Below are positions 18,374 through 33,348 of a DNA stretch of 64,000 nucleotides, one piece after another. Below the pieces are notes generated by a model. The model searched no databases. It was not told where the DNA came from and saw only the letters and a program-made list of their open reading frames with translations. The translations under genes were made by a program, and so were the position numbers. Each line of letters begins with the position of its first letter. Positions within the stretch are counted from its first letter, which is position 1. The DNA comes from an uncultured Gemmataceae bacterium (GTDB taxonomy: Bacteria > Planctomycetota > Planctomycetia > Gemmatales > Gemmataceae), in NCBI GenBank assembly GCA_963750165.1, contig CAVVPN010000012.1, positions 1 to 64,000 on the forward strand. Reading direction: 5' to 3'.

Positions 18374-19636
18374 ATGGATGCGATGACTTCCTTGCTGATT
18401 ACCGCCGACCGCCTGTTCGACGGCACCGGCGGCCCCACCGTGGTGCGGCCACTGCTGCGCGTGGACAGCGACCGCATCGCCGCCGTCGAACAGGCCCTGC
18501 TGCCGCCCGCCGGCTGCACCGGCGAGCGCCACGACTTCCCCGGCTGCACCGTCCTGCCCGGCCTCATCGACACGCACGTCCACCTGGTCTTCGCCGCCCT
18601 GGAGACCAACGACGCCATCATCCGCCAGGTGAACGGCGAGACCGACGACGAGTTGTTGCAGCGGGCGGAGGCGAACGCACGCGCTGCGCTGCACGCCGGC
18701 CTGACGACGGTGCGCGATTGCGGCGGCCGCAACCGCGTGGTGCAACGGCTGCGCGACCGCATCGCCACGGGCCAGGCCGAGGGGCCGGACGTGCTCAGCT
18801 GCGGTATGCCGATCACCACGACGCGCGGCCACTGTCACTGGCTCGGCCTGATCGCCGACACGCCCGCCGAGGTCCGCCGCGCCGCCGAGCGCATGCTCGC
18901 GGAGGACGCCGACTTCCTCAAGGTCATGGCCACCGGCGGCAACATGACGCCCAGCTCCGACCCGATGCGCGCCCAGTACGACGACGCGACGCTCAAAATG
19001 ATCGCCGACCTGGGCCGCGCCGCCGGCAAGCACACCGCCGCCCACGTGCTCAGCCGGGCCGCTCTGCCTGGCGCCGCCGTCGCCCGCGTCCGCACCATCG
19101 AGCACTGCGACTGGCGCGTCGAGGAGGACCGCTACGCCTTCGACCCGGACCTGGCGCAACAGCTGCTCGAGCAGCAGCAATACGTCGGTCTGACGATGTC
19201 GAGCCTGGCGCGGCGGGCGTTTTTGCCGCAGATCGCGCAGTTGAACATCGGCCCGGTGCGGCGGCTGGACCAGCGCTTCGAGTGCGAGCGGCGCATGCTC
19301 GACTTCGGCCTGCGCTACACGCTGCACAGCGACGCGGGCGTGCGGCTGACGCCCATTGCGCGCTTCGATCTGGGGCTGATGGCGGCGGTGCGCGAGCTGC
19401 GGCTGACGCCGGCGGAAGCGCTGCGGGCGGCGACGGCGACCGCGGCGGAGGCAATCGGTTTGGCCGACCGCGGCGTCTTGACAGTGGGCAGACGCGCCGA
19501 CCTGATCGTGGTGGAGGGCAACCCGCTGCAGGACATTTCGTGTATCGGCCGTGTCAAGGCGGTGTTGAAGGCGGGCCGCTGGTTCGTCAACCCGGCGAAC
19601 GTGCAACCGGTTCTCATGAAGGAGAAGGACCCATGA
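18374..19636 (+). CDS. Amidohydrolase family protein (imidazolonepropionase-like)
   Basis: PGLIDTHVH, GLTTVRDCG, LKVMATGG, AAH, IEHC, SDAG, GRRADLIVVEGNPL. Confidence 0.88.
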   Translation: MDAMTSLLITADRLFDGTGGPTVVRPLLRVDSDRIAAVEQALLPPAGCTGERHDFPGCTVLPGLIDTHVHLVFAALETNDAIIRQVNGETDDELLQRAEANARAALHAGLTTVRDCGGRNRVVQRLRDRIATGQAEGPDVLSCGMPITTTRGHCHWLGLIADTPAEVRRAAERMLAEDADFLKVMATGGNMTPSSDPMRAQYDDATLKMIADLGRAAGKHTAAHVLSRAALPGAAVARVRTIEHCDWRVEEDRYAFDPDLAQQLLEQQQYVGLTMSSLARRAFLPQIAQLNIGPVRRLDQRFECERRMLDFGLRYTLHSDAGVRLTPIARFDLGLMAAVRELRLTPAEALRAATATAAEAIGLADRGVLTVGRRADLIVVEGNPLQDISCIGRVKAVLKAGRWFVNPANVQPVLMKEKDP

Positions 19637-20067
19637 AGCGCCTGAGCTACTGCGGGACGTTGGCCGTGCTGCTGGCAGGCGCCGCTTACGCCGGCGGCGA
19701 GCGTGAGGAGCAGTTGCGGTTGGAGGGCAACTGGGAAATTGTGGAACTGGGATACGTTGGCGCTGTCAAGCCGTACCCGAAGGGTCTCAAGATAATCCCC
19801 ATCAACACGGGCAAGATGGCCTACACCGCCGCCACCATCTATGCCCTGCGTCTGGCGCCGACCCGCGAACCGCGCGAGGTGGACCTGACGGTCGTCTCCG
19901 GCTCCGCCAAGACCAAGGGTAAGGTGTACAAGGGCATCTACAAGCTGGAGGGCGACACCTTCACCATCCATTACGCGCTCACCGGGGACCGGCCCAAAAA
20001 CTTCACGGACGGCGCGGGCACCAAGGTGCGCGTGATGAAGTTACAGCGCGTCCGGCAAGCAAAATAG
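19633..20067 (+). CDS. Secreted TIGR03067-domain protein, copy 1
   Basis: Signal peptide; LEGNW, PREVDLT, GIYKLEGDT...RPKNF. Confidence 0.85.
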   Translation: MKRLSYCGTLAVLLAGAAYAGGEREEQLRLEGNWEIVELGYVGAVKPYPKGLKIIPINTGKMAYTAATIYALRLAPTREPREVDLTVVSGSAKTKGKVYKGIYKLEGDTFTIHYALTGDRPKNFTDGAGTKVRVMKLQRVRQAK

Positions 20068-20075
20068 GAGTGACC

Positions 20076-20516
20076 ATGATGCGATCTGCTCTGGCCTGTG
20101 GGGTGGCATTGGTGCTGGCGGCAGGCGCGCCGGCCGGCGGCGAGCGCGAGGAACAGCTTCGGCTGCGTGGCGCCTGGCAAATCGTGTCCCACGCCCCGTT
20201 CGGACAGCCGGGCAAGCAGAACGGACAGCGAATCATTATCACCGGCGACAAACTGGAATTCGAAAAGATCATCCGCTACACCCTGCGCCTGGCCCCGACC
20301 CGGGAACTGCGCGAATTCGACCTGATTGGCCTGTCCGACCCCAATGGCCCCAAGGGCCCCTTGTACAGGGGCATTTACAAGCTGGAGGGCGACACGCTCA
20401 CCCTCCACTACGCCCTCTCCGGGGAGCGGCCGAGCAGCTTCACGGATAACGACAAATCCAGAGTGTGGGTGTTGCAGTTGCGGCGTATCAAGGAAGAACG
20501 AAAGGAGCGAACATGA
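20076..20516 (+). CDS. Secreted TIGR03067-domain protein, copy 2
   Basis: Same framework: LRGAW, GIYKLEGDTL, RPSSF. Confidence 0.85.
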   Translation: MMRSALACGVALVLAAGAPAGGEREEQLRLRGAWQIVSHAPFGQPGKQNGQRIIITGDKLEFEKIIRYTLRLAPTRELREFDLIGLSDPNGPKGPLYRGIYKLEGDTLTLHYALSGERPSSFTDNDKSRVWVLQLRRIKEERKERT

Positions 20517-20944
20517 TGCGATCTGCTCTGGCCTGTGGAGTGGCCCTGGTGCTGGCGGCGGTCGCGCCGGCCGGCGGCGAGCGCGAGGAACAGTTGCGCC
20601 TCAAGGGCACCTGGGAACTCGTGGAACTGGGATACGTCGGCGCTGTCAAGCCGGTCGGCAGCAAGAACTTTTCGATCACCATCATCGGCGACAAGATGAC
20701 CCTTTCCGCCAAGGTTACCTGGGTCCTGCGCCTGGCCCCGACCCGTGAGCCGCGGGAGGTGGACCTGACGGTCGTCGCCGGCACCACGTCCAAGAGCAAG
20801 GTGTACAAGGGCATCTACAAGCTGGAGGGGGACACCTTCACCATCCATTACACACTCACCGGGGACCGGCCCAAAAACTTCACGGACGGCGCGGATAACA
20901 AGGTCCGTGTGATGAAGTTGAAGCGCGTCAACAAACCGAAGTAG
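20513..20944 (+). CDS. Secreted TIGR03067-domain protein, copy 3
   Basis: AAGGAG RBS; LKGTW, GIYKLEGDT, RPKNF. Confidence 0.85.
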   Translation: MMRSALACGVALVLAAVAPAGGEREEQLRLKGTWELVELGYVGAVKPVGSKNFSITIIGDKMTLSAKVTWVLRLAPTREPREVDLTVVAGTTSKSKVYKGIYKLEGDTFTIHYTLTGDRPKNFTDGADNKVRVMKLKRVNKPK

Positions 20945-20952
20945 GAGGGATC

Positions 20953-21402
20953 ATGACGCCGAATACCGCAGTCCTCTGGGTGGCCGTGGCGCTGGTGCTG
21001 ACGGCGGGAGCGGCCCACGCCGGTGAGCGCGAGGAGCAGTTGCGCTTTCAGGGCACCTGGCAGTTGCTGGAGTCGGGGTTGGTCAACCGTCCGATTAAAA
21101 TCAAAGACCAACGGATGACCGTCGTCGGCACCAAAATCACGTTCAGCGGCAGCACGCACTTCACCCTCCACCTGGCCCCGACCCGCGAGCCGCGTGAGCT
21201 GGACCTGCGGCCGCTCGACGGCAAAAACGAGAAGCAGTGGTACAAGGGCATTTACAAACTGGAGAACGACACGCTCACGATCTACTACGCCCTGCCGGGC
21301 GGCGCTCGGCCCACGAACTTTCGCGACGCCAATCAGAACGGGGTGCAGGTGTACTTGATGAAATACCAGCGTGTCCGGGACGGCAAGAAGGGGGACCGAT
21401 GA
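20953..21402 (+). CDS. Secreted TIGR03067-domain protein, copy 4
   Basis: GGAGG RBS; FQGTW, GIYKLENDTL, RPTNF. Confidence 0.85.
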   Translation: MTPNTAVLWVAVALVLTAGAAHAGEREEQLRFQGTWQLLESGLVNRPIKIKDQRMTVVGTKITFSGSTHFTLHLAPTREPRELDLRPLDGKNEKQWYKGIYKLENDTLTIYYALPGGARPTNFRDANQNGVQVYLMKYQRVRDGKKGDR

Positions 21403-21836
21403 GGACCACATGCGCAGTGCGGTGCTGGCTGGCGGCGCTGCTGCTGGCGGCGGGGGTCGCGCACGCCGGCGGCGCGCGCGAGGAACAACTGCGGTTGCAG
21501 GGCACCTGGCAGTTGCTCGAAATCGGGGTGGCCGGCGACACCGTGAAAATGTCCGCGGTCAGCCGTACCGTTGTTATCGCCGGCGACAAAATGGCGTTCA
21601 GCCCCAAGACGGAGTACCGTCTCCGTCTGGCCCCGACCCGGCAGCCGCGCGAAATCGACCTGACCATCACGAAGACCAACAAGGTCCTCAAGGGCATCTA
21701 CGAGTTGCAGAACGACACGCTCACCATCTACTACACGACCACCGGCCGGCGGCCCACGCGGTTTGAGGACCGGGGCAAGGACGGCGACGTGGTCCGCGTG
21801 ATGAAGTACCGACGCATCCCGAAAGAACAGAAATAA
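21399..21836 (+). CDS. Secreted TIGR03067-domain protein, copy 5
   Basis: LQGTW, PREIDLT, GIYELQNDTL, RPTRF. Confidence 0.85.
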   Translation: MRTTCAVRCWLAALLLAAGVAHAGGAREEQLRLQGTWQLLEIGVAGDTVKMSAVSRTVVIAGDKMAFSPKTEYRLRLAPTRQPREIDLTITKTNKVLKGIYELQNDTLTIYYTTTGRRPTRFEDRGKDGDVVRVMKYRRIPKEQK

Positions 21837-24687: not shown

Positions 24688-25962
24688 ATGCGCCCCACGA
24701 TCGCCCAACGCCCGCTCAAGGTGATTATTTACATTCAATGCGACGCCACTCGCAACCGTTGTCTGCAACAACTTGGGGAACTGCAAGCGGGAACCCAGCT
24801 GGCAACCCAGTTGGCCCGCTACGCCCTGGAGTGGGTGAAGTGCAACAACGAGGAAGAAGTCGTCGCCACGCTGCGTGCGCATTTCGGCGCGTCCCCGAGC
24901 AACGCCGCCCTGCTCCTCTCGGACCAGTTGGTCGAGACCTTCGGGCAGTTCCCCGAGGAAAGGTACGTGCTGAAAAGTTGGCTGAAAGCGAACGTCCTCG
25001 ACGAGTTTGAGGGCCGGTTACTCGGGACAGTGGCCATCATGCCCAGAAACGTGCGCGTGCCCGACATCGACCGCGTCCTGTGGAAGACGTTCGACGCCAC
25101 GGCTCTCCTGGAGGTGTTGAGCCTGCTCGCCAGCAAATTGACGTACCTCGCCCCGCCCGAACGCAGTGCGGCTTCCGTGGGGCTCGGCCCTGTCGTGGTG
25201 CGGCCGATCACCAGAAAAGAAGAATTGGTGGATTACTTCAAACTGCGTCACCGGATCTATCGCGTCATGGGCTACCTGGAGCCACGGGTGGATCTCGCCT
25301 CTTCCAAAATGGAGATTGACGAGGGGGACACGCACGCCCTTCACTTCGGCGCCTTTGTGAGAGAAGGGGTCCGGGACCGGCTGGTCGGCACGGCGCGCGT
25401 CGTGTGCCTGGAACTGGAGGAAGATGAAAACGCGCGGTGGACCCGCTCGCTGGCCAAGGCCGACACGGCTCTGGGGTGGTCCACGGGACTCCACCTCCAG
25501 CTGCGCCTACCGATTTTTCAATCGATGATAGGCCTGGACGATCGCCTGATTCAAGTCCTTACCGAGGAGCAAAACTGCGGCGAACTGAGTCGGGTCATCG
25601 TGGCGGAGGATTACCGCGGACTCGGCCTGTCCGAACTGCTGGTCTGGTTCGCGTTACTCCAGGCCGACCGCAAAAAAGTGAATCGACTCCTGCTGGAGTG
25701 CTTGCCGGTTCACGAGCGCCTCTATCGCAAATTCGGCTTCCAAGTCTTACCCGGGGTGCAGGGCCAGGTGACGGGGGTCGGCAAGACCATGATCGCGATG
25801 GAACTCGAGCAAGGCACCCTGGAGCAATTTCGCGGGCAGCCGCCCGCGATCCGTTTTGCGCAAGTGCTGCGCCAACGGGGGCAGTTGCTGAGCTGCTTCA
25901 CGCCCGCCTGTGGCAGCGCGGAGTGCGAGTTGTACGTGAACGGCCGGTGCGCCGTGCGCTGA
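24688..25962 (+). CDS. Receiver-like domain fused to a GNAT acyltransferase (LuxI/FeeM-like)
   Basis: C-half: YFKLRHRIYRVMGY, EIDEGD, LVGTARVV, GELSRVIVAEDYRGLGLS, LYRKFGF. N-half has a REC-like beta/alpha pattern (LLLSD; RVLWKTFD). Confidence 0.7.
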   Translation: MRPTIAQRPLKVIIYIQCDATRNRCLQQLGELQAGTQLATQLARYALEWVKCNNEEEVVATLRAHFGASPSNAALLLSDQLVETFGQFPEERYVLKSWLKANVLDEFEGRLLGTVAIMPRNVRVPDIDRVLWKTFDATALLEVLSLLASKLTYLAPPERSAASVGLGPVVVRPITRKEELVDYFKLRHRIYRVMGYLEPRVDLASSKMEIDEGDTHALHFGAFVREGVRDRLVGTARVVCLELEEDENARWTRSLAKADTALGWSTGLHLQLRLPIFQSMIGLDDRLIQVLTEEQNCGELSRVIVAEDYRGLGLSELLVWFALLQADRKKVNRLLLECLPVHERLYRKFGFQVLPGVQGQVTGVGKTMIAMELEQGTLEQFRGQPPAIRFAQVLRQRGQLLSCFTPACGSAECELYVNGRCAVR

Positions 25963-26029
25963 GGAGTACCCGCGGAGCAGTTCGGTCCAGACCGCGCGGC
26001 GTCTCCGCAACAACGTCTTGGGATCCGCC

Positions 26030-27438
26030 ATGTTCAACGCCGTCATCGAAAAAATCGTGTGGCCCCTGCTGGGCGTCGGGGTGGTCGTCCTTGGGTGCTT
26101 TGTCATTGCTTTTCACAATGAACACCAATCCCCGTACCCTTACCTGCTCATCGCCCTGGGTTTGGTGATGGTGTCCTTTGAAAAGGCACGCACGGTGGCC
26201 GATTTCGCCGTCGCCGCCTGGAACCAACTCCGGCATCCCGGGCCGACCCCCCGGCCGCACAACGTGACCGACAGTCAAGTCCTCAGTCAGGGGGTGCTTT
26301 GTGAAACCGAGGCGCCGCCGGCCGCTGACGAATGGAATCGTTTTCTCCGGCCGGTGCTCTACCAGGCCTCGCATTACGCCACTCCCACGTACTACCTCAA
26401 CATGAAACTGCAAATCCTCGACTGGAATGTCGCCTTTGAGTTGCTGTTTCATGCGATTCTGGGAAAAATCCGCAACCGACACGTCAACTACTTTATCAAC
26501 GAACTGGAAAACAAAACCGATGTCTTCGACCACGCCCGCGATTTCTCGGAACGGGTCCGCAAGGGGTTCCTGGCGATGGCGGATACCGAACCGCTGGTGT
26601 GGCGCTCGGAGAAATACGGTCTCGTCACGTTCCTCAAGGTGGCGGTGCTGCTCAGCGACGCCCGGGGCGAACCGCAAGGTTGGTCGGTGGCACTGCTGCC
26701 CAGCAACATTGACTGGAAGCCGTTTGGCGACGACCTGTTCGCCAAGGTTCGGGAAGACAAGCTCTGGAGCCTCTACGCCAGTTCGTATGATCGAGTGCTC
26801 CTGCAATTCCCCCCCTACCTGAAATTGATCGAGGACGTGATTGCCGCGGTGCCGGCGACTGGGCGGGCGGTTCTCGACCTGGCGCAGGGACCGGGAACGT
26901 GACCGCCGCCTTGCTGAAGCGGGGCCACCGCGTGACCGTGGTGGAAAACAACCTGACCATGCTCGAAAAACTGCGCGAACGACGCTTCGACCCCCTGGCC
27001 GTTGAGATCGTCAAGGCGTCCGTGGAAATCCTCGATTCTCTGAACCCAAAGCTCCGGGGCACCTTTGATGCGGCGGTCATGGTCAACGTGCTGTACGCGG
27101 TGGACGCACCGCTCAGTTGTTTGCAAGGCGTCCATCACATGCTCAAGCCGGGCGGGGTGTTGGCTTTCTCGACCACCCATCAAACGACCGACCTCGAACC
27201 CCTGCTCGGTGCCATCAAAAAGCAACTGGAAACGATCGGCAAATTCGATTCCCTGGCCAACGACTATGAGCGACTTTGTGAGGCGAACCGGGACATTCAA
27301 AAGACCATCGCCTGCCGGTATTCCACCGACCAGTATCGCGAATGGGTAAAGCTCGCCGGGTTCCAGATCATCAAAGACGAGCCCTCCACCTACGTGGACG
27401 CCGTCATGCTCATCCACGCCCTGAAAGTCAGGGACTGA
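26030..27438 (+). CDS. Two-TM + PAS-like + class I SAM methyltransferase; single-base frameshift near 26881
   Basis: Adding one G at CTGGC restores VLDLGAGTGNV. Later FDAAVMVNVLY and LKPGGVL. PAS-like PTYYLN...ILDWNVAFELLF...DARGEPQGW. Confidence 0.75.
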
Positions 27439-28369: not shown

Positions 28370-29694
28370 TCAGCCACCGGCTGCCAGCGCCGCGCACACG
28401 ATTTCTTCGTCGTTGCGTACGAAGACGCAGCGCTGCGCGAAGGCCGGATGCGACAGCACGACCGTGCGGCCGCGGGCGGTCTGCGATGGCTTCACCAAAT
28501 TGGCGCGGTCGATCTCCTCATAGCCCTGCGGCGTCAACCGGGCAATGAGCAGGTCGCCCTGGTCGGTGAAGCCGAAGTAGCGGCCCTGGTTTTCCACGAA
28601 AAACACCGTGCCGCAAAAGGCCCGCTGGCCGCCGACCGCCTGGAACGTCTCCCACACCCGCGCTCCTGTTCGCGCCTTCAGACAGCGCAATTCTCCCATG
28701 CCGTCCAGGCCGTAGAGGTGGCCGTCGCGCAGCACCGGGTTGGCCATCACCACATGCACCGTGTCGGTCTTGCTGGGGTTGTTGCTCTTGCTGCGCCAGA
28801 AGACCTTCGCTGCTGGTTTGCCCGCGTCCAGGGCGATCATCAGCGAACCGTGGTAGTACGAACTGACGAACAGCTTGTCCTTGCCGACCAGCAGCGGTGT
28901 CATGATGTTGACCGCCGGCCGCTGCGGTTTGCCATCTTCCGGATAGGGAATGGACCAGAAGACCTTGCCCGTGTTCGGGTCGAGACTGTTGACGGACTCG
29001 CTCAGCCAGACGATGACCTGCCGGGTGCCGCCCGCCTCGATCAGCGTCGGCGGCGCACAGGCGATCTCCTCGGTGGAGAGCACCGCCACAACTCCCTGCC
29101 GGTGCCGGCGTCGAAGGCGACGGCGCCGCAACCGTTGGTGCCGACGGTGCAGATCAGTTTGTCGCCGACCAGCAGCGGGTGCGCCGACCAGCCCCAGAGC
29201 GGCACCGGGGCCTTGAGGTCCTTGACGAAGTTGCGGTGCCAGAGCGGCTTGCCCGTCGCGGCGTCCAGGCAAAACAGGTCGCCCATCGTGCCGAGCATGT
29301 AGACCTTGCCGCCGTGGATCAGTGGCGTTGTGCGCGGCCCGGTCGGGAAGCCGATCTTGCCGTAGGTGCAGGCGTATTCGTGCTTCCACACCAGGGCGCC
29401 GTCGGCGGCGTTCAGGCACAGGACACGCTCCGTGCCCGCGCCCAGCTTCTGGCGGTCCATGACGTAGACGCGGCCGCCGGCCACCGCCGGGCCGCTGTAG
29501 CCCTGGCCGATGGGTTTGCGCCAGAGAATTTTGGGACCGCCGGCGGGGAATTTGTCGAGGATGCCCTTTTCGCGCCAGACGCCGTCGCGCTGCGGACCGA
29601 GCCACTGCGGCCAGTCGTCGGCCGCCGCCGGGCCGGCCGCCGCCAGCACGATGCACACCCCCAGGAGCCACGGGAACGGTTTTCGCCAGCACAT
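28370..29694 (-). CDS. PQQ-like beta-propeller repeat protein; frameshift near 29085
   Basis: DDWPQWLGPQRDG, GYSGPAVAGGRVY, SHPAFAQRCVFVRND. Confidence 0.88.
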
Positions 29695-29816
29695 GATTCG
29701 GCCCTCGGAATTGCAAGAAATCAACCGGGCCATTATGCGCGACGTCGGCCGCCCCACAACGGGATTGGGACGAAGTGCGACGGCGGACGGGCGAATGGGA
29801 TTCCGGCGTGAGCGGC

Positions 29817-30878
29817 TCACGGCCCGGCAGTCGCTGGCTCGTCGTGCCGTTCGATGCCTGGGATTTGCAGGATGAAGTCCGGCCCGAACGCCTGCGCCGG
29901 TGTGTGAAAGCCCACCGGTGCCTCGCCAGCCAGGACGCGCTCGACGACGGCCACCGCCGTCAGCGCCGTCAGCGTGTAGCCCTCCGGCCCGCGCAGCCGC
30001 GACACCACCGATCGATCAGCGTCGTCGTGGGCCTCGCCCCAGAGCAGGCTGCGGCCGCGGGCACGCTCCTCGTCGGTAGGGCCGGGCGGGCCAGCCTGGA
30101 TGCGCCGTTTCAGGAACTGCTGCGCCCGCGGCGAGCCCAGCAGCGGCCCGAACAGACGCAGCAGCAAGGTCACGAGCCGCGCGGTCGGCGGCACCGCCAT
30201 GTAGACTTCGATGTTGGGGATCCCGGTGCTGTGGTACGCGGTGGACACGTCGCCCCAGGGGATGGTCATGGCGGTGGTGCGACCGGCGCCGAAGTCAATG
30301 CTGCGGAAACGCCAGCCCGCTGGCACCCGCACCAGCTTGCCGTCACGGCGGATCAGGCCGCCCCGGTTAACGTGCTCGACGGTTGTGTTCGCCGTGCCGC
30401 GCGATACTTTTCCAGTCACCTGAAAGCCCAGCGCCAGATGCGTCGCCGTCGGCAGCCGCTCTTTCAGGTGAGCGGCCAGGCAGTCCGATGGCACCACGTC
30501 GAAACCGACGCCTGGCATCAGCAGCACGCCTGCTTCGCGGGCCGCCGCGTCGCGTCGCGCCAGCGCCTCGAAGACTGCGATCTCGCCGGTGATGTCGAGG
30601 TAATGCGCCCGCGCCCGCAGACAGGCACGGCTCATGGCGGCGAAGGTGTGCGCGAACGGGCCGGCGCAGTGCAGCACGAGGCCCACGCCCTCCAGGTGGC
30701 GGGCGACCGTGGCGGCTTCCAGCGCGAAGACGCGGTGCGCGCAGCCGGTGGTGGCGGCGAGCGCGGCGAGTTGCTCGGCGTTGCGGCCGGCGAGGATCGG
30801 CCGCAGACCGCGCTCGCGCGCCCGCTGGACGATCAGCCGGCCGCTGTAGCCGTTGGCGCCGTAGATAAGCCAGTCCAT
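29817..30878 (-). CDS. Saccharopine dehydrogenase-like NAD(P)-binding oxidoreductase
   Basis: IYGANGYSG, LAGRN, HCAGPF, YLDITGE, GFDVVPSD. Confidence 0.88.
   Translation of the reverse strand: MDWLIYGANGYSGRLIVQRARERGLRPILAGRNAEQLAALAATTGCAHRVFALEAATVARHLEGVGLVLHCAGPFAHTFAAMSRACLRARAHYLDITGEIAVFEALARRDAAAREAGVLLMPGVGFDVVPSDCLAAHLKERLPTATHLALGFQVTGKVSRGTANTTVEHVNRGGLIRRDGKLVRVPAGWRFRSIDFGAGRTTAMTIPWGDVSTAYHSTGIPNIEVYMAVPPTARLVTLLLRLFGPLLGSPRAQQFLKRRIQAGPPGPTDEERARGRSLLWGEAHDDADRSVVSRLRGPEGYTLTALTAVAVVERVLAGEAPVGFHTPAQAFGPDFILQIPGIERHDEPATAGP

Positions 30879-31341: not shown

Positions 31342-33348
<2,007 letters not shown>

Follow-up and report, generated by a model that had tools for sequence, protein, structure and literature searches.

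The first 64,000 nucleotides of contig CAVVPN010000012.1, hereafter the window, form the start of contig C12 in the assembly of an uncultured Gemmataceae bacterium (GCA_963750165.1; 9.6 Mb, 12 contigs, 93% complete) and contain, at 24688..27438 on the forward strand, two genes that each join a presumptive sensor domain to an enzyme. Gene 1 (24688..25962, ATG at 24688, 424 amino acids) encodes an atypical receiver-fold domain, a GNAT acyltransferase of the LuxI/FeeM clan and an optional tail with four cysteines (Cys4), and gene 2 (26030..27438, ATG at 26030, about 469 amino acids) encodes two transmembrane helices (2TM), a PAS domain and a class I S-adenosylmethionine (SAM)-dependent methyltransferase, the last being interrupted by a one-base frameshift. 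The coordinates, frames and shared orientation agree with a preliminary description of this DNA, as does the remark there that the pair is AT-richer than its surroundings: the GC content is 0.62 in gene 1 and 0.59 in gene 2, and 0.76-0.79 at the third codon positions of the pair, compared with 0.66-0.73 and 0.84-0.93, respectively, in six neighbours with a correct frame and with about 0.66 in the genome at large. All four domains are already known; what is new, as far as the databases and papers searched extend, is their fixed pairing together with a repeated exchange of the 2TM hairpin for a TIR domain.

The gene 1 family was assembled from a word search, which yielded 54 proteins at E<=0.001 with the query counted in, and from a profile built on 52 of these, which extended it to 255 clusters (50% identity) at E<=1e-30. 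In the AlphaFold model of the window protein (pLDDT 91.7) residues 7-159 adopt a receiver fold, best matched by the REC domain 6swl (Z 12.8, root mean square deviation 2.7, 120 aligned residues) and then by further REC chains at Z 11.6-12.3, so that the domain (amino acids 6-157, 24703..25158) has the (beta/alpha)5 architecture, with a loop in place of helix 4. By sequence the domain resembles ordinary receivers weakly (hhalign probability 3%, P 0.005), the Pfam scan of gene 1 did not match REC, and an Atlas search with this half returned scores below 0.9 throughout, OKR_DC_1_N and Response_reg at 0.85 being leads only. The preliminary description had recognised here a receiver with its Asp and Lys in the expected places. 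The fold and the Asp are borne out, since Asp79 (codon 24922-24924), which stands where beta3 ends and a phospho-acceptor is expected, is kept in 159/165 relatives and aligns with the REC Asp in hhalign. The Lys fares differently: as mapped via a weak profile alignment, a Lys after beta5 is kept in only 4/169 relatives, such that Lys133 of the window protein is not a family trait, and Ser/Thr after beta4 in 45/169. Asp, Ser/Thr and Lys occur jointly in 6/139, which makes the proposed gating by phosphorylation doubtful. Conserved residues specific to the family are Arg123, Asp126 and Asp128.

The GNAT domain (amino acids 166-375, 25183..25812) is of the LuxI/FeeM type to which it had been assigned from the outset. 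In the same model residues 162-389 have FeeM (2g0b, Z 16.6) as top fold match, followed by RpaI, YjcF, TofI and LasI (Z 14.3-14.8), and the Pfam FeeM family (PF21926) matches gene 1 at 39.7 bits against a cut-off of 27. Near-invariant in 190 aligned segments are R187, Y191, Y196, D214, R237, P275, E299, S301, R302, E337, C338, H342 and Y346, and the pattern R-Y-Y, E-x-D-x-x-D, R and ELSR in gene 1 is one that we take to be the LuxI/FeeM signature. Also retained is the P-loop R310-G311-x-G313 (25615..25626), with R310 in 177, G311 in 182 and G313 in 161 of 182 relatives. An RGxG loop of this kind binds coenzyme A (CoA) and is altered in FeeM, which uses acyl carrier protein (ACP), according to the sections consulted of PMC11685415; since gene 1 retains the CoA-type loop, its acyl donor is likely to be acyl-CoA, and its conserved residues suggest an active acyl-CoA-dependent N-acyltransferase. 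The tail (C403, C408, C413 and C421; 25894..25950) is present in the window protein, as had been remarked, but is not family-wide, a pattern count finding it in 53/159 full-length relatives, about one third; a zinc site is possible. A promoter and terminator scan gave results at chance level only.

Gene 2 opens with a hydrophobic hairpin (26051..26185), in which a hydropathy scan places one transmembrane helix above threshold and a second is visible by eye, in keeping with the two that had been claimed. The PAS domain (about amino acids 100-228, 26327..26713) likewise holds up: the call rests on weak Pfam hits and on the intact relative P0057, a stand-in for gene 2 with a model at pLDDT 89.7, in which the Atlas features score 0.97 and the structural TM-score to PAS domains is 0.58-0.64. 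A PAS-only profile matched nothing among PDB sequences, and the top ranks of PDB fold searches with the P0057 model were all taken by the methyltransferase part. When the PAS region of an intact relative was used as query, 102 proteins were found, that relative and the window's truncated product included, and nearly all run on into a methyltransferase with motif I intact. The methyltransferase (26759..27435) is of the small-molecule type, with NovO as a fold match to P0057 (Z 22.0), and has the Rossmann fold, GxGxG motif and acidic motif II of class I, as anticipated; no NCBIfam cut-off is attained. G297, G299 and G301 of motif I are invariant, the acidic E/D318 of motif II is present in 93/93, and W, Y, YD and N residues are invariant in the family. 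Judged by these conserved residues, gene 2 probably encodes a SAM-binding, active small-molecule methyltransferase, and the small-molecule chemistry envisaged earlier is likely.

In the window itself one base is lost within motif I, in a short G run at 26881..26883, where the frame changes and the second frame then stays open to the stop at 27438. We regard this break as probably a long-read assembly error because it sits in a G run, because the gene 2 halves on either side are equally near intact relatives (58-70% and 59-70%), and because frames slip in other genes of the assembly: the essential NAD-dependent DNA ligase of the window (31348-33348, forward strand) carries two compensating frameshifts at about 32560-32680, in the zinc-finger region, where the Cys motif absent from the frame can be read in a different one, a mark of assembly indels, and 8-10 of about 60 DUF1501 paralogues switch frame. 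That gene 2 is instead a recent pseudogene, leaving the module dead in this genome only, has but a slight probability, for all that the break falls within motif I and outside read coverage (one DNA run, which covers only 25486-25665) and that gene 2 is split also in L020 and L024. At both of these loci, which are metagenome contigs, the pair copies are broken or partly deleted.

The pairing is strict. Among 27 metagenome loci found via gene 1, about 18 of them distinct (L008/13/14, L009-12 and L016/17 being near-identical), gene 2 lies directly downstream in 24, and the contigs of the other 3 stop inside gene 1 or no more than about 170 bases from it. From the side of gene 2, 80 genome loci were found, and the top 12 (profile E<1e-70) all adjoin a gene 1 relative, one in reverse order and one with a 0.5 kb gap; the rest comprise 5 loci of a sister clade without gene 1 and 63 generic methyltransferases. 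The 12 paired genome loci belong to Planctomycetota (6), Bryobacteraceae, two alphaproteobacteria, Methylococcaceae, Desulfobulbaceae and Bipolaricaulota. Across 22 pairs, which are not independent where they are related, gene 1 and gene 2 distances correlate (rho 0.80, Mantel p 0.0005). The neighbourhood search thus upholds the linkage, and the pair is real and co-diverging over at least five phyla. A third conserved gene beside it was sought and none was found. The pair is also rare and patchy, being found in 1/400 genomes of the phylum and with no full-length match among 60 relatives; it is single-copy in 5/5 carriers checked, and the source genome (G000) holds no paralogue of either gene.

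The preliminary description missed that the N-terminus of gene 2 is an exchangeable slot, and that gene 1 is fused in some relatives to TIR, caspase or CHAT domains. Of 98 gene 2 proteins with an anchor motif, 72 show two transmembrane helices in a hydropathy scan, 12 a single helix and 14 no helix. The hairpins are of at least two mutually unrelated types (P 0.49), and neither type occurs elsewhere in the source genome. A TIR domain stands instead of the transmembrane helices in 9/111 tree sequences, five of these being CAP12/Pycsar-type TIRs in one clade (support 1.0) and four TIR_2-type, P0085 being counted among the latter by eye because it resembles P0083. By parsimony the replacement of 2TM by TIR in this slot took at least four changes, and a recent switch from 2TM to TIR is seen in P0083/P0085, which stand beside the 2TM-bearing P0071. 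The CAP12-type TIR of L033 matches the CBASS effector TIR at E 5.6e-45 and PycTIR at 2e-33, and 15/16 TIRs inspected have a Glu-bearing motif at the position that we presume to be catalytic. On gene 1, TIR, caspase or CHAT occurs in 10/168 tree leaves, which amounts to seven changes and is a minimum, as only longer relatives were scanned; L027 has a TIR on both genes. For TIR_2, the background is 42 matches in 31 related genomes (about 184 Mb), or, assuming 1.15 kb per gene, about 0.03% of genes compared with 4-8% in the pair family. Taken together, the exchangeable slot and the fusions make the setting look less like ordinary quorum sensing and more like conflict or immune signalling.

A third gene 1 clade, P0226-P0297, keeps the Cys4 tail well and includes the majority of the CHAT/TIR fusions, which reach 1080 amino acids, and a gene 2 partner was seen in L027 only. 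Within it P0246 has a PilZ-like N-terminus by eye and P0287 a weak EACC1-like tail (E 0.047).

How, then, might the two enzymes be functionally coupled? An acylated small-molecule alarm signal, of a kind for which we found no description, appears likely, because a rare pair persists across phyla and repeatedly gains immune-type domains. The reading that we favour, tentatively and with somewhat less than even confidence, is that the pair may serve conflict signalling independently of a kinase, as a module whose messenger, derived from acyl-CoA, would be bound and methylated by gene 2 and would thereby switch its 2TM or TIR part. The trigger, at a guess, might be infection or another conflict stress, sensed by the receiver-fold domain or relayed via a fused TIR or caspase. 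Gene 1, probably ligand-switched rather than kinase-switched, would then acylate a small amine using acyl-CoA, and its product, by analogy with Pycsar, may be the ligand of the PAS-methyltransferase unit. Ligand binding or methylation would alter the oligomeric state of gene 2 and fire or reset the output part, a membrane hairpin in the window and a predicted NAD-cleaving TIR in some relatives. If this were so, a new class of alarm messenger inside cells would come from LuxI/FeeM-type enzymes, and there would be an example on which kinase-independent receiver domains could be tested. The narrower proposition of an immune system proper, whose second messenger is an acyl amide, perhaps a SAM derivative bearing an acyl group, rather than a nucleotide from a cyclase or TIR, and in which this product of a quorum-sensing-type synthase is read by the PAS-methyltransferase unit so as to gate a membrane-damaging hairpin or a NAD-destroying TIR, is in our view unlikely as it stands, although if true it would tie LuxI/FeeM chemistry to abortive-infection immunity.

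Several observations weigh against signalling of this kind. More than 90% of pair members are without TIR or caspase, and both TIR and CHAT belong to the mobile domains of these taxa, one genome having as many as 54 CHAT matches. Since TIRs occur on gene 1 too, they may work as input or adaptor domains and not as killers. The methyltransferase is the best-conserved part of gene 2 and more conserved than the acyltransferase, which suits biosynthesis, and we know of no TM/TIR effector with an intact methyltransferase. No PADLOC model matched gene 1, nor did any match the 2TM or the PAS part of gene 2, and phage and plasmid collections held no copy of the pair, viral contigs showing only generic methyltransferases. 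The flanks are largely ordinary as well: in the window the pair has a HEAT-repeat gene on one side and an RNA-binding gene on the other, and PADLOC matched 7/120 flanking proteins (5/20 loci) compared with 5/114 (5/20 loci) in the control, with four genes per side taken at pair loci and three at control loci. By our own judgement, generic kinases, ATPases and helicases being excluded, defence-specific flank proteins number 4 in 3 loci (Shedu, PDC-S14, Mrr and a PD-(D/E)XK nuclease) versus 0 in the control. At L008:1833-13401 the pair has Shedu (SduA) in its flanks, together with a PDC-S14 match and a Ser/Thr kinase that bears PD40 repeats. In a complete genome (L112, G400:C1:510500-530400) it lies in an AT-rich island (GC 44-48%), which also houses transposases of the IS1380, IS256 and IS110 types, an Mrr nuclease, a TPR protein and a TIR-helicase-like protein, and this copy counts in favour of conflict signalling.

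Relatives of the gene 2 enzyme occur in other cassettes, where sister PAS-methyltransferases stand behind NDT/DrHyd-type genes (L040:8699-12591, L041:946-5296, L044:7652-10272, L045:7568-10906 and L042:5472-11293). In L041 the NDT/DrHyd-type gene is fused to a caspase, and in L042 (Aquisphaera insulae) it has trypsin and, below cut-off, EAD1-like domains. These partners, which belong to the N-terminal modules listed for conflict systems in PMC7159879, speak for the signalling reading. A double GNAT or a LuxI/FeeM-like GNAT follows the sister PAS-methyltransferase at 3/5 loci (L040, L041 and L044), an EgtD-like methyltransferase being an alternative third gene in these cassettes, and the C-terminal part of the sister-clade NDT proteins does not align significantly with the PAS of the pair (P 0.08). 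L049:7952-10780 encodes a protein of 942 amino acids that joins PilZ to a methyltransferase, the latter being the only related part; its operon consists of large unknown genes. Elsewhere in the window, five short paralogous secreted-type proteins stand in tandem on the forward strand (about 19630-21836) with the common start 'GG(E/A)REEQLRL.G.W', the one tested having no Pfam match at E<=1e-4, and a PQQ-like beta-propeller gene is spread over two frames on the reverse strand (28370-29820).

A serious competitor, even if we think it rather unlikely, is a biosynthetic one, in which the two enzymes would in turn make a methylated N-acyl amino acid or amine, similar to the stieleriacines, that is exported and acts as a signal or allelochemical. 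On this account the receiver and PAS domains would tune the enzymes, the transmembrane hairpin would be an anchor, and the TIR and caspase fusions would be occasional input or adaptor modules. Planctomycetes indeed make methylated N-acyl tyrosines with a synthase and a methyltransferase, as the parts consulted of PMC7293339 and PMC12479983 report. The GNATs adjoining sister methyltransferases, the ordinary flanks and a methyltransferase that looks active and is more conserved than the acyltransferase all fit. Such a pathway leaves unexplained why TIR replaced the hairpin four times rather than being added to it, and no ACP, ThiF-like protein, nitroreductase, exporter, PEP-CTERM protein or regulator is conserved beside the pair. 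If biosynthesis were nevertheless correct, the two genes would form a route, doubly controlled by sensors, to an undescribed methylated N-acyl metabolite. Both leading readings, alarm signalling and biosynthesis, can be checked with two genes in E. coli, and the natural TIR fusions offer a direct NADase read-out.

A model along the lines of the preliminary description, in which a histidine kinase phosphorylates the receiver, an AHL (N-acyl-homoserine lactone)-like synthase makes a quorum signal and a membrane methyltransferase matures or quenches it, now appears very improbable. The receiver fold with its Asp79 and the rank of AHL synthases right below FeeM are consistent with it, and orphan kinases are plausible in the source genome because at least 66 ordinary receiver domains occur there. 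It is opposed by the poor conservation of the Lys and Ser/Thr positions, by a divergent clade (L034-L039) that by eye is without the Ser-Asp motif, and by the lack of a Pfam Autoind_synth (PF00765) match to gene 1 at E<=1; a genome search for PF00765 was blank, though its positive control was blank likewise. As had been noted for the two genes themselves, neither a histidine kinase nor a LuxR was found among 120 neighbours of 20 loci (E<=1e-12), and no autoinducer-binding domain of the LuxR type was found in the 93% complete source genome, the E. coli control being positive. Modification of a macromolecule or lipid, with gene 1 acetylating a protein (possibly the gene 2 product) or an amino sugar, or with the pair making an N-methylated aminolipid at the membrane, is also distinctly improbable. 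The C-terminal half of the GNAT is by sequence nearest to glucosamine-6-phosphate and protein N-acetyltransferases (E 2e-5), the CoA-type P-loop is there, phospholipid N-methyltransferase 8ys9 is among the top folds of gene 2 (Z 20.4) and ornithine-lipid enzymes match weakly; the whole GNAT domain, however, ranks FeeM and AHL synthases first, and lipid housekeeping is a poor match for a pair that is rare, patchy and single-copy and that has soluble TIR forms.

The pair has no model of its own in Pfam, NCBIfam or PADLOC, and full-text and supplement searches, whose coverage largely excludes subscription journals, did not find it described. FeeM and LuxI were not among the first matches in the supplements of PMC7159879 and PMC8195603 (all but one file of the latter), and a paper by Burroughs and Aravind (2020), which PMC8195603 cites and which deals with conflict systems that have receiver domains, may bear on novelty. 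Identity with MADS was considered and rejected: the PADLOC mad2 model matches the gene 2 methyltransferase (E 3e-25), but an unrelated PCMT does so equally well, mad2 is, in the portion consulted of bioRxiv 10.1101/2023.03.30.534895, a DNA N6-methyltransferase in an eight-gene operon, and no other mad gene is conserved here.

The multicellular-bacteria conflict systems (VMAP, iSTAND, EACC1 and EAD-coupling systems) resemble the pair in that a constant core bears swapped N-terminal modules, among them TIR, DrHyd, caspase, trypsin and EADs (PMC7159879, in part), although in the pair only a minority of members bear them. They also share the occurrence in planctomycetes and kinase-independent receivers, which the sections consulted of PMC8195603 propose as ligand switches. 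Unlike the VMAP, iSTAND, GAP1 and EACC1 systems, the core of the pair has no MoxR-vWA, GTPase, STAND or EACC1-caspase and consists of two small-molecule enzymes. With FeeM and those synthases of N-acyl amino acids that are associated with PEP-CTERM/exosortase systems gene 1 shares the top fold (2g0b) and the PF21926 match, and with the NasY pathway of stieleriacines the pair shares the logic of a synthase and a methyltransferase in planctomycetes (PMC7293339, PMC12479983, both in part). It differs from FeeM in keeping the RGxG loop and in having neither a conserved ACP neighbour nor an exosortase context, from the exosortase-associated synthases in a TIGR03694 score of 31 against a cut-off of 112, and from both FeeM and NasY in its fused receiver and PAS-fused methyltransferase; the stieleriacine clusters have other genes, and the portions consulted of the same two papers mention no PAS or receiver fusions. 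To AHL synthases (LasI 1ro5, TofI 3p2h and the CoA-using RpaI 6wn0 and BjaI 5w8a) gene 1 is similar in fold at Z 14.3-14.8. From the LuxI family it is set apart by having no PF00765 match and no LuxR partner, and by its classic CoA P-loop.

The layout is closest to that of Pycsar and CBASS, in which a signal-type synthase stands beside a sensor with a transmembrane or a CAP12/Pycsar-type TIR effector part, and the interchangeable TM/TIR sensor of gene 2 parallels the alternation of PycTM and PycTIR (PMC11224242, in part). Unlike those systems, the pair has no nucleotide cyclase, gene 1 having no PADLOC or cyclase match and there being no third gene, and instead of a cNMP or STING sensor it has PAS with an intact methyltransferase; its synthase is an acyltransferase of the LuxI/FeeM clan with a receiver-fold domain, and it is rarely found in defence islands. 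Since it is without the cyclase of Pycsar, has a CoA loop and no ACP where FeeM uses ACP, and is without the LuxR of LuxI systems, the pair falls outside each of these by its defining feature, and is Pycsar-like in layout and FeeM/LuxI-like in chemistry.

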